A stretch of DNA of 64,000 nucleotides from a virus. Its lineage: Duplodnaviria > Caudoviricetes. Positions 26,308-29,275 of the stretch are shown here, piece after piece. Made by a program: the position numbers and the translations under genes. Below the pieces are notes generated by a model. That model saw only the letters and a list, made by a program, of their open reading frames with translations. It did no database searches and was not told where the DNA came from. Each line of letters starts with the position of its first letter. Position 1 is the first letter of the stretch. The stretch spans positions 128,001 through 192,000 of the IMG/VR virus record IMGVR_UViG_3300033463_000011; one strand, written 5' to 3'.

Positions 26308-27801
26308 ATGGCTAAAAAAGCTACAGTAACATCAGCTATCGAAGAGCCTAAGAATACATCTTCTGTGCTCGGAACATTTACTGGTAAGTGTTGCGATGCA
26401 GCTGTGTTCAACAATAACTCAATGAAGCTTAATAGGGAGTTATTTGAGAAGTTACTTGATTCTGATGAATACAAGGACGCAATAGAGCATAGATATTATA
26501 TCGGATTTTTAGGTCACCCAGAAGATCCCGGTTGCCAAAATTTCAAAGATGCATGTATTGTAATGACATCTATGGAAATAACTTCTGATGATGAAATACT
26601 CGGCACATTTGACTTAGTAGATACTCCTGTAGGTAGGATTGTTAAGTCATTTATCGATGCAGGTGTTGAATGGGGAATTTCAATCAGAGGCGCAGGCGAT
26701 GTAGATAGTGAAGGTAATGTAGATCCTGATACATTCGTATTTAGAGGTTTCGACTTAGTTGCATTTCCTGCTTACGGTGACGCAGTTCCTGAATTCCAGC
26801 AAGTTGCAGCTTCATCTAACCTTGATGACCAAGTTAAGTTTAAGCGAGTTTGTGCTGCAATTGAAAAGAACATTAAAGAAGTTACTAGCCTTAATTCTAT
26901 TGAAGCTATGCAGGAACAGTTTAATCCTGATTCAGACCAATATAAGAAGCTTGAAGCAAGGAAAGAAGATATTGGTGTAGGTACTGAAGATGAGTGCCCT
27001 GAATGTTCTGATGAAGATAAACAGGAAATACTCGCTAAGAAACTTCAAGCAGTAACAAATCTTTACATTGAAGAACACAATAAAAATAAAGAACTCGAAT
27101 CTGCTTTAGCATCAACTCAATTACAATATGATAGAGAAATACAGAGCATCAAGAGAATAAAAGCAAGTCAAGATAAGTTAATGCAATCCAAGTTGGAAAC
27201 TATTAAAGCATCAAATCAAAAATTATTAAAATCTAATCACGGATTAGTGCTCGCTAACAAGCAGTTATCTAACGATTTAGAAACATTAGAAGCGGAAAAT
27301 TCTCAAATAGCTAAAGAATTAAACGCATCTAATAAAAATAACCTTATTTATAAACAGAAGATAGAGAGTTCCTCTACTGATATCCAAACTAAAGATACGC
27401 AGATTGCTGAATTGCGTGAAAAGCTTAACAAGACTGTTGTTGCAAGTACAAACGCAAGGAAAGAAGCATCAAACCGTGGTGAGCAACTGGAAAGCCTTAA
27501 GGAAGAGATATCAGCTTCTAATCAAGAGCTTGATGAAATGTTAACACGAATTCAAGCGATGGAAGAAACGATTCATGAATATCAGCAAGCATACGCTAAT
27601 ATTTATGCAAACGCAATAGGAATTCAAGCATCTGGTTTATCTGTTACTGCATCAACTTCTGTTAGCGATTTGGAAAACTTAATCAAATGCGCAACGAATA
27701 CATCAAATATCGGAGCAATGCCGTCGTTCAGTGAAGAAGACGAAGAAGCATTTCTTCCATCCGATGTAACTAACAGTGGAAACGATTTAGCAGTACTTTA
27801 A
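26308..27801 (+). CDS. Prohead protease (T4 gp21-like) fused to a coiled-coil scaffold
   Basis: GFLGHP, TPVGRIV, GISIRGAG, FDLVAFP motifs; long coiled coil; directly upstream of the capsid gene. Confidence 0.85.
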   Translation: MAKKATVTSAIEEPKNTSSVLGTFTGKCCDAAVFNNNSMKLNRELFEKLLDSDEYKDAIEHRYYIGFLGHPEDPGCQNFKDACIVMTSMEITSDDEILGTFDLVDTPVGRIVKSFIDAGVEWGISIRGAGDVDSEGNVDPDTFVFRGFDLVAFPAYGDAVPEFQQVAASSNLDDQVKFKRVCAAIEKNIKEVTSLNSIEAMQEQFNPDSDQYKKLEARKEDIGVGTEDECPECSDEDKQEILAKKLQAVTNLYIEEHNKNKELESALASTQLQYDREIQSIKRIKASQDKLMQSKLETIKASNQKLLKSNHGLVLANKQLSNDLETLEAENSQIAKELNASNKNNLIYKQKIESSSTDIQTKDTQIAELREKLNKTVVASTNARKEASNRGEQLESLKEEISASNQELDEMLTRIQAMEETIHEYQQAYANIYANAIGIQASGLSVTASTSVSDLENLIKCATNTSNIGAMPSFSEEDEEAFLPSDVTNSGNDLAVL

Positions 27802-27835
27802 TTATTTTAAAGATATTAAACATTAGGAGACTAAC

Positions 27836-29275
27836 ATGGCTATTAAAAAGACAACTCGTAGAGTTACCCCTACTAGCATTACAGCTGCAAGAAGTCTTAA
27901 TAGACCCGCAAGAATTGGTTATTCCGCACCTCGCAGCATCAATGCAGGCACATCAATCACATCTGCTTCTCGCAGATCCGCAAGACCTGTAAGCAGAACA
28001 GCTTCTTCTGTAGAGCTTACACAGCAGCAGAGAGTTTTCTGCAATCAGCTCATTGCAAACACACGTAAGCTTGCTCCTGTTATGGCAGCAACAAACACAT
28101 CAAACATCATGGCTAAGCCTGAGTTCACAGAGCTCCTTCCTCTCTTCGTACAGAAGTTGCTCGTTCTCGATGTATTTGGTTCAGTAGCAATGAATTCTCG
28201 TCAGCAGATCATTCCTTACTTCAAGTTCATCGCAGAGAACACAAAGGGTGAGACAGCTGCAGGTACAATCCTCTCTTCTGCTTTCGTAAACAGACAGGGA
28301 ATGGATCCGAACTTCACAGGTCGTGTAATTAAGAATGAGGCAGTTGCTAACAGCACACTCGTTTATACACCTATCCTTCCTGGTTCAGTTTCTATCTCCG
28401 ATGGTACTAATGTATACATCGACGATGGTGCTGGTAACCTCATTAAGAAGTCTGATTCTTCTAGCGCAGGTACAATCAATTATGCTACTGGTGCAATTGG
28501 CACACTTGTAGGAACACTTTCTGCTTCTTATGAGTATGACAACGAGACAGTAGGTCCTGACCAGAATGGTCAGTATGGTGCTAAGATGGCTAAGGGCTAT
28601 CTCCAGCTCGATGAGATCAACATGGTAGCAGAAGCACACGAGATCGCTTGCTACTGGTCAATCTATTCTGCATTCGCAGCTCAGCAGGAGTACGGTGCAA
28701 ACATCGGCGAGATTTCTAAGGAAGCTGCTTTCTCTGAACTCACAGCAGAAATCAACAGCGCTTGCTTCAACGAACTCGCTCAGGCAGCTACATACAATCC
28801 TCAGTTCAACTGGGATGCATCTCTTGCATTCAACGGTGCTGTAATGCCTTCTGATTTCCTTAACCTCTTCAAGTTCAAGCTTGACGATGCAGCTAACGCA
28901 GTATACCAGGCAACAAACCTCACAAGACCTAACAGACTCATTGTTGGTACAAAGGTTGCTTCTCTCATTTCCAGACTTCCTGGTTTCTCTTCTGGTGCAC
29001 CTGAGGAAACAGTTGGACCTTACAAGCTCGGTACACTTGATCAGTATGTTATCTACGTAGATCCTTACTATGATCCGAATACTTGGGTAATGTGCGCTAA
29101 GAGCAACGACATTAGACGTAACTCTGCACTTTACGGCGAATATATGCCTATGGTAAAGACAGACGATATCGGTCTTGCTAACGCTAGTGTACAATCCGGT
29201 TTTGCAACTATGTACGCAACCAAGATCGTCAATCCGGCAACAATTATTTCCGGTAAGGTTCTCGGCGCATTCTAA
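27836..29275 (+). CDS. Major capsid protein, T4 gp23-like
   Basis: gp23-like motifs (VFGSVAM...YFKF; W...AAQQEYG; ELTAEIN; GTLD.Y.IYVDPY; YGEYMP) and strongly biased codon usage. Confidence 0.9.
   Translation: MAIKKTTRRVTPTSITAARSLNRPARIGYSAPRSINAGTSITSASRRSARPVSRTASSVELTQQQRVFCNQLIANTRKLAPVMAATNTSNIMAKPEFTELLPLFVQKLLVLDVFGSVAMNSRQQIIPYFKFIAENTKGETAAGTILSSAFVNRQGMDPNFTGRVIKNEAVANSTLVYTPILPGSVSISDGTNVYIDDGAGNLIKKSDSSSAGTINYATGAIGTLVGTLSASYEYDNETVGPDQNGQYGAKMAKGYLQLDEINMVAEAHEIACYWSIYSAFAAQQEYGANIGEISKEAAFSELTAEINSACFNELAQAATYNPQFNWDASLAFNGAVMPSDFLNLFKFKLDDAANAVYQATNLTRPNRLIVGTKVASLISRLPGFSSGAPEETVGPYKLGTLDQYVIYVDPYYDPNTWVMCAKSNDIRRNSALYGEYMPMVKTDDIGLANASVQSGFATMYATKIVNPATIISGKVLGAF

Follow-up and report, generated by a model that had tools for sequence, protein, structure and literature searches.

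We analysed a stretch of 64,000 nt (the window), positions 128,001-192,000 of the virus record IMGVR_UViG_3300033463_000011 (Duplodnaviria; Caudoviricetes; whole virus genome 200,233 bp), and found that two head proteins encoded there, a protease-scaffold fusion protein and the major capsid protein, share a segment of 15 residues. On balance, it is fairly probable that this shared stretch is a maturation cleavage site together with the residues that follow it, cut in both proteins by the phage's own fused protease of the T4 gp21 type. The protease would recognise and cut [I/V]-x-[A/G/C/S]↓[A/S]-T (x, any residue; ↓, cut).

The scaffold copy (A-T-N-T-S-N-I-G-A-M-P-S-F-S-E; aa 462-476, nt 27691-27735) and the capsid copy (A-T-N-T-S-N-I-M-A-K-P-E-F-T-E; aa 85-99, nt 28088-28132) are identical at 11 of 15 residues, and open reading frame (ORF) translations place both peptides where a sequence-only reading of the window had named them. 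BLASTP of the scaffold against the capsid protein returned the motif as the sole notable match (E = 0.004), and when a capsid 10-mer was compared with shuffled scaffold sequences, the observed score was matched in 0 of 300 shuffles. The likeness starts three residues before the core, with I-K-C in the scaffold and V-M-A in the capsid protein, both of which fit [I/V]-x-small. At the DNA level 31 of 45 bases match, and the codons comprise 5 identical ones, 6 synonymous differences and 4 replacements. The six synonymous differences, among 11 identical residues, indicate that the likeness is held at the protein level, as the sequence-only reading had proposed, and is not a recent duplication. That reading had also let the scaffold end in the motif; the copy does lie near the C-terminus, but a further 21 residues, most of them acidic, come after it. 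Across the six frames of the whole 200,233-bp genome there are exactly two occurrences of the core T-N-T-x-N-I. A third copy among the other head proteins, sought across the same frames, was not found, and the long motif is therefore not a general substrate tag.

In the mechanism that we propose, cleavage of the capsid protein after Ala84 would make A-T-N-T-S-N-I the mature N-terminus of the shell protein and shed a basic propeptide of 84 residues. A cut of the scaffold after Cys461 (site S2) would shed an acidic tail of 36 residues, and further cuts in the scaffold protein would probably fall at aa 9/10, 168/169 (the protease/scaffold junction) and 449/450. The acidic tail would hold the basic propeptide in the prohead, which makes this pair a likely core-shell contact. 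The tethered protease would then cut capsid and scaffold at like bonds and, because both propeptide and tail are removed, the shell would be freed from the scaffold core, as at the herpesvirus M-site. We examined the two charges in relatives sampled from 95 loci (IMG/VR and metagenomes), which gave 76 distinct scaffold and capsid pairs with capsid identity of 55-85%. The results showed that the signs are complementary in all 76 pairs, with a net charge of +9 to +18 for the propeptide and of -3 to -15 for the last 36 scaffold residues (-7 in the window); both signs are reversed in Bacillus phage HSE3 and in LIS04.

The fused protease and its predicted cut sites

The fusion protein matched PHROG 207, head maturation protease, with an E-value of 8e-19. 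A 21-sequence profile was aligned with T4 gp21 by hhalign over aa 24-168 (E 3e-5, probability 73%, 141 columns), and both catalytic motifs of the gp21 family, H-P and G-x-S-x-R-G, were present. The T4 residues that align with the predicted catalytic His and Ser (Table 1) are the ones mutated in a "dead" gp21 (PMC12991175). Conservation of the protease/scaffold sites was scored over 60 full-length relatives. Upstream of S2, site S1 was retained in essentially all window-clade scaffolds, those without S2 included, and would be an older, weaker copy of the same pattern.

The AlphaFold2 (AF2) model of the fusion protein had a predicted local distance difference test score (pLDDT) of 74.5, with a folded domain at aa 20-165 and with values below 50 at aa 1-17, 167-170 and 463-497. 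The sole low-confidence break between the protease and scaffold domains was aa 167-170, at the predicted junction site J, and the predicted S2 cut (461/462) coincided with the boundary between helix 452-461 and the disordered tail 463-497. In the model of the capsid protein (pLDDT 81.5), values fell below 50 at aa 4-58 and 83-94; helices 63-78 and 97-107 flank the latter segment, and Glu99 lies inside the second helix. Every predicted cut site of the two proteins was located in a low-confidence or loop segment.

Foldseek searches with the capsid model recovered the phage P1 head (9ukm, E 9e-21), T4 gp23* (8gmo, 6uzc and 5vf3; E 1e-14 to 1e-17), T4 gp24 (1yue) and phage S6 (E in the range of 1e-14 to 1e-20), which agrees with the fold of the gp23 family (HK97 fold with insertion domain). 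Neither the capsid protein nor the scaffold nor a 21-row capsid profile matched any sequence in the PDB, and hhalign of this shallow profile against T4 gp23 was uninformative (probability 0.8%).

The residue before the cut across relatives

We compared the two copies across the 76 pairs. The capsid stretch [I/V]-[M/T/N]-[A/G]↓A-T-N-T-x-N-I-x-A-[K/R]-P-x-F was nearly invariant, and its first three positions fitted in 76 of 76 window-clade capsids. The scaffold stretch [L/I]-I-x-[G/A/S/C]↓[A/G/S]-T-[N/S]-T-x-N-[I/V/M] was recognisable at the same place in about 45 pairs. P-x-[F/Y] stood at about the 11th-13th residue past the cut in 23 of the 45 S2-bearing scaffolds, and most of the others had P-x-hydrophobic there, by reading of the list rather than by a computed count. 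On the capsid tree the scaffold copy occurs in most deep branches, and its distribution calls for no fewer than 5 changes (10 by parsimony). It looks like an ancestral feature of the window clade that was lost again and again and, being lost repeatedly, is dispensable. None of the outgroups examined has the copy in its scaffold tail (p > 0.1 there for outgroups with Glu before the cut), and we regard it as a derived feature of the window clade. Co-conservation in relatives, on which the sequence-only reading had staked its claim, was found: the copies co-occur in about 45 of the 76 pairs, in most deep branches, although the scaffold copy has repeatedly disappeared.

To place the capsid site within its family, we searched 1.8 billion representative proteins and aligned about 100 full-length relatives. 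The start of the N-terminal arm (N-arm), [A/S/T]-T-[Q/N/R/K]-x-x-[D/N]-[I/V], is widely conserved in the family, and Glu directly precedes it in 57 of about 99 representatives. Relatives with Glu before the predicted cut are called Glu-type here, and those with A, G, S or C there (the window clade and the P0149 clade) small-type. Examples of Glu-type capsid sites are L-L-E↓A-T-N-S-Q-N-I in locus L016, I-L-E↓A-T-N-S-S-N-I in the P0128 clade (34% identity) and M-T-E↓S-T-Q-T-S-D-V in HSE3, and T4 gp23 has L-T-E65↓A. The T4 protease gp21 cleaves after L/I-x-E (PMC9026906). The nearest small-P1 outgroup capsid (P1, the residue before the cut), P0127, has I-R-S↓A-T-N-T-T-N-I; a scan of viral contigs for its locus gave no match. 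Other capsids without Glu before the motif are P0133, P0145, P0158, P0168 and P0173. By position, the bond that precedes A-T-N-T in the window capsid protein corresponds to the Glu-preceded start of the N-arm, and we therefore infer that it is the maturation site of the family, with Ala or Gly in the usual place of Glu. The proposal of the sequence-only reading that both copies are preferred protease substrates is favoured by this comparison, as the N-terminal edge of the copies aligns with canonical gp21-type [L/I/M]-x-Glu↓ sites of distant relatives and lies in segments predicted to be flexible, the cuts being predicted in both proteins.

The same replacement was seen at the other sites. At junction J, hhalign sets A168↓S169 of the window protein on E187↓S188 of T4 gp21 (I-T-E↓S), and Glu-type relatives have [V/I/L]-x-E↓S. 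Site S1, V-T-A↓S-T-S-V, aligns without gaps to I-T-E↓S-T-S-L-T-K-I of HSE3. At the N-terminal propeptide site the relatives carry V-T-A↓A, I-T-S↓A or I-K-A↓D, and the protease of the Glu-type genome G001 has L-T-E↓S at its N-terminus. By sequence, the Glu of the sites that gp21-type proteases cut (L/I-x-E in T4, S/A-x-E in phiKZ) is missing at the aligned positions, which hold A, G, S or C in the window proteins.

The protease differs along with its sites. The residue after the catalytic Ser is Ile or Val in the window and P0149 clades (G-[I/V]-S-[I/V]-R), whereas it is Ser (G-[I/V]-S-S-R) in all Glu-type proteases examined, namely T4, HSE3, LIS04, GXN1, L016, L103-L113, L115 and L129-130. The residues preceding the catalytic His also differ between small-type and Glu-type proteases. 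The P0149 clade combines the capsid site I-P-S↓A, the protease tail L-A-A↓S and the motif G-V-S-I-R. In this clade (L119-L128; protease ORFs near 2878-3483) the protease is a stand-alone protein of 200 aa without a fused coiled-coil scaffold, and the fusion and the specificity change are therefore separable. We infer that the P1 preference of the protease has moved from Glu to small residues.

N-terminal leaders across the genome follow the same pattern. Among the 236 plus-strand ORFs, 56 begin with M-K-x-Y-[I/V]-x-[A/S/T]↓ (7 residues) or M-K-I-Y-[A/C/S/G]↓ (5 residues). N-termini of the form [LIVM]-x-small were observed 34 and 44 times against 15.5 and 12.1 expected, and [LIVM]-x-Glu was not enriched at the N-termini of this genome (2 and 5 observed, 4.2 expected). 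The Glu-type side of the comparison was one whole genome, G001, in which the result was reversed, with 19 and 13 Glu-form N-termini against 5 expected. Leaders of G001 end in Glu, for example M-K-L-R-I-K-E↓S (M-K-L-Y-I-K-S↓S in our genome) and M-I-K-L-L-Y-E. Capsid-targeting sequences of T4 are removed by gp21 (PMC9026906), and the leaders look like T4-like sequences of this kind that have been re-tuned to the protease. An extended pattern with [N/D]-[I/V/L/M] at the 6th-7th residues past the cut was too weak to use (22 against 14.7 expected; at N-termini, 5 against 0.4). A search of four Glu-type genomes for homologues of a leader-tagged paralogue of 106 aa found none, and the flanks of the Glu-type loci contained no leaders.

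Several features of the genes themselves deserve mention. The first 60 residues of the capsid protein (window 27836-28015) are disordered and rich in R, K, S and T; such a basic propeptide is unusual for tailed phages, and the capsid propeptides of HSE3, LIS04, GXN1 and T4 are acidic. Database entries of 397-407 aa, covering 83% of the query, had raised the possibility of an internal capsid start at Met83, which we rejected, since many relatives have Thr or Asn there and since 82 conserved upstream codons and an A-G-G-A-G box about 10 nt before 27836 contradict it. The gene calls of such public entries (P0037 and P0051) may start at an internal Met near the predicted cut and so lose the conserved propeptide. 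On the 3' side of the capsid gene, window 29478-33317 contains large homing-endonuclease-like genes (PHROG 3339/12131, DUF7487), one of them fused to a DNA methylase domain. Similar genes follow the capsid gene in many relatives (L002 5690-7870, L004 5447-7528, L009 5597-7570 and L011 5678-7882). In several Glu-type relatives (L016 3947-5792, L109 3495-4349 and L113 3498-4355) the capsid frame halts at one shared point, after ...H-[K/R]-Q-L-V-A, and in L016 it picks up again about 430 nt downstream; the interruption looks like an intron or other insertion in the major capsid gene. On the 5' side, a homologue of a small acidic head gene (window 23724-24116) directly precedes the protease gene in L007. 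In the window, two leader-tagged genes (24119-26209) are interposed, one for a protein of 372 aa rich in Cys and Asp, the other for a phosphoribosyltransferase-like protein (Pfam PF00156, 27 bits).

Table 1. Window positions of the head-protein features and leader-tagged genes (↓, predicted cut)
Feature	Position	Strand	Details
Protease-scaffold fusion gene	26308..27801	+	497 aa; protease domain about aa 18-165, long helix aa 235-436, disordered C-terminal tail (AF2)
Predicted N-terminal propeptide site V-T-S↓A (aa 7-10)	26326..26337	+	Within disordered segment 1-17 (AF2)
Predicted catalytic His70 in G-F-L-G-H-P	26515..26517	+	Aligns with T4 gp21 His85; invariant in 60 relatives
Predicted catalytic Ser125, then Ile126, in G-I-S-I-R-G	26680..26685	+	Aligns with T4 Ser140; invariant in 60 relatives
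Predicted release site J, protease/scaffold junction, V-A-A↓S (aa 166-169)	26803..26814	+	[I/V]-A-A-[S] in 58-60/60 full-length relatives
Site S1, L-S-V-T-A↓S-T-S-V-S-D-L (aa 444-455)	27637..27672	+	Loop 437-451 (AF2)
Site S2, N-L-I-K-C↓A-T-N-T-S-N-I-G-A-M-P-S-F-S-E (aa 457-476)	27676..27735	+	Scaffold motif copy; in about 45/76 relatives
Acidic C-terminal tail (aa 477-497)	27736..27798	+	Net charge -6; conserved D-L-x-x-L at end
Major capsid protein gene, T4 gp23 type	27836..29275	+	479 aa; Pfam Gp23 PF07068, 64.5 bits against a cut-off of 24.4, aa 107-469
Predicted capsid propeptide (aa 1-84)	27836..28087	+	Net +14; basic low-complexity aa 1-60 plus helix 63-78
Capsid motif copy with predicted cut, A-P-V-M-A↓A-T-N-T-S-N-I-M-A-K-P-E-F-T-E (aa 80-99)	28073..28132	+	Nearly invariant in 76 relatives
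Leader-tagged ORFs, examples	8568-17305, 19823-20439, 24119, 25412, 33351, 35149, 36186, 38456, 39089, 45472	+	

Other explanations of the shared stretch

Several observations weigh against the interpretation of the stretch as a cleavage site. All the cut sites are predictions from sequence, and the Pfam S77 match of the protease (PF03420, 22.7 bits) falls under the cut-off of 27. The scaffold copy has decayed in about 31 of the 76 relatives, leaving only I-x-small. S1 is not a Glu site in 3 of 9 Glu-type relatives (L016, L109 and L111), which means that some of the aligned sites may stay uncut. The window and P0149 clades may have inherited a single switch from a common ancestor; the match between protease and substrates would then count as one event and not two. 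Finally, the leaders do not contain the A-T-N-T-S-N-I part and are alike only in the residues before the cut; therefore, a cleavage site alone fails to explain a scaffold likeness that continues for about 13 residues past it.

This last point bears on a docking role, the other proposal of the sequence-only reading, in which A-T-N-T-S-N-I-x-x-x-P-x-F of the scaffold would fill the place that the N-arm later takes, be it on the capsid protein or on some other partner, and would act as a placeholder to be displaced. Such mimicry is compatible with cleavage at the edge of the motif. The scaffold likeness extends beyond the known reach of T4-type proteases, which are described as reading a "surprisingly short" motif (PMC9026906). 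The 56 leader-tagged proteins manage with the pre-cut part, and invariance of the capsid segment is expected of a lattice contact. We nevertheless regard docking as unlikely. Both copies are disordered in the single-chain AF2 models, and all Glu-type outgroups are without the scaffold copy. Within the clade that copy was lost at least 5 times with the capsid copy kept, which indicates that assembly is independent of it. A complex prediction with capsid aa 100-479 and scaffold aa 440-497, both with alignments, scored 0.00, which amounts to "no answer" and speaks neither for nor against binding.

Because the S2-bearing scaffolds keep capsid-like residues to about the 13th position past the cut, which the leaders do not need, the cleavage-site reading suggests in addition that the capsid and scaffold segments share a binding partner, either an extended site on the protease or the lattice site of the N-arm. 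A more elaborate scheme would make the scaffold tail a cleavable stand-in. Scaffold aa 462-476 would hold the site later taken by capsid aa 85-99 of a neighbouring subunit, one protease would cut both at identical bonds, and the freed capsid N-terminus would displace the freed scaffold peptide, coupling release to lattice locking in a T4-type lineage that moved from Glu to small P1 residues together with about 60 substrates. Taken as a whole, this scheme is quite doubtful.

The cut might instead fall at the other end of the motif, after F-S-E476 (scaffold) and F-T-E99 (capsid protein), which would be T4-like hydrophobic-x-Glu sites with the shared stretch as an upstream recognition sequence. 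F-x-E does end both copies, and all characterised gp21-type proteases cut after Glu (PMC9026906). However, several relatives have Q, D, N or S at capsid position 99. The aligned residue, part of a conserved helix motif, is D in most of the Glu-type relatives examined and E in LIS04, and Glu99 itself lies within predicted helix 97-107. The scaffold Glu is retained only in the closest relatives, the leaders of this genome avoid Glu at the matching position, and a cut there would throw away the most conserved part of the capsid N-terminus. These results make a cut at the far end very unlikely.

It is harder still to credit that the scaffold copy is an evolutionary relic without present function, left by a duplication or gene conversion that once placed a short part of the capsid gene at the 3' end of its neighbour, the scaffold gene. 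The genes are adjacent with the copies about 400 nt apart, and the scaffold copy is derived in one clade and decaying in many lineages. Yet the different codons at 6 of the 11 identical residues indicate that the copy is old and held by selection, and it persists at the same place where the scaffolds are only 40-60% identical. Equally improbable is a pseudosubstrate that occupies the active site of its own or a neighbouring protease until capsid binding pulls the tail off. The tail belongs to the same polypeptide as the protease and reproduces its main substrate, but in the full-length AF2 model aa 463-497 stay below a pLDDT of 50 and do not appear docked on the protease domain, and many relatives are without the scaffold copy.

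Known assembly systems and significance

The closest known system is head maturation in T4 (gp21, MEROPS S77; scaffold gp22; capsid protein gp23). The two agree in the fold and family of the capsid protein, in the protease alignment including His and Ser, in a predicted capsid propeptide that ends right before the conserved N-arm, in a protease C-terminal site aligned to I-T-E187↓S188, and in many proteins with short N-terminal leaders ending in hydrophobic-x-P1 (PMC9026906). They differ in the predicted P1, which is Ala, Gly, Ser or Cys in the window and not Glu. In addition, protease and scaffold form one polypeptide in the window, the capsid propeptide is strongly basic, and 15 residues of the scaffold tail repeat the capsid site, a feature that T4 gp22 does not have.

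The consensus of herpesvirus proteases is (V/L/I)-x-A↓S. It resembles the [I/V]-x-A↓S predicted here, and sequences that fit it are conserved at the junction and close to the window protein's C-terminus, in flexible segments. The herpesvirus assemblin-scaffold precursor (pUL26, with R and M sites) likewise has an N-terminal protease fused to a C-terminal scaffold, with one site at the junction and one near the C-terminus that detaches a capsid-binding tail (PMC4498786); in the window both sites and the tail binding are predicted. Unlike the herpesvirus enzyme, the window protease is closest by sequence to T4 gp21 and not to assemblin, and the herpesvirus major capsid protein is uncut and has no copy of the M-site. 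By analogy, the window system can be described as T4 logic in a herpesvirus-like arrangement.

In Staphylococcus phage 80alpha, the capsid and scaffold proteins share a conserved motif at the bond cut by one protease, Prp (PMC5744158). This provides a precedent, as an analogy only, for the same sequence at the cut site of one protease in both proteins. The shared motif of 80alpha is N-terminal and is cut at F↓A by the host protease Prp; in contrast, the window protease is phage-encoded, the scaffold copy lies 36 aa before the C-terminus, that of the capsid protein begins with aa 85, and F↓A is missing. In SaPI1, the rival scaffold CpmB reportedly imitates the tail of the 80alpha scaffold and competes for the capsid N-arm. 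This is an earlier case in which an assembly protein shares a binding site by mimicking a short stretch of a second one. In the window, what the scaffold tail resembles is the N-arm of the capsid protein itself, and a shared binding site would be a prediction.

The characterised T4-type prohead proteases (T4, phiKZ and SPN3US) all cut after glutamate (PMC9026906). It appears that a clade of metagenomic phages of about 200 kb has changed this rule, and that the capsid protein, the scaffold and about 56 leader-tagged proteins followed. If confirmed, this would be an example from nature of a protease re-tuned along with all of its substrates, with one candidate determinant adjoining the catalytic serine, and the mature N-termini and packaged proteins of these phages could be predicted by rule. 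Bacterial defences sense gp21 activity through I/L-x-E bait loops (PMC12991175), and we speculate that a protease no longer cutting after Glu, if that is what these phages have, would not trip such a bait. The long copy of the N-arm in the scaffold would also offer a compact handle on how scaffold release is coupled to maturation of the shell.

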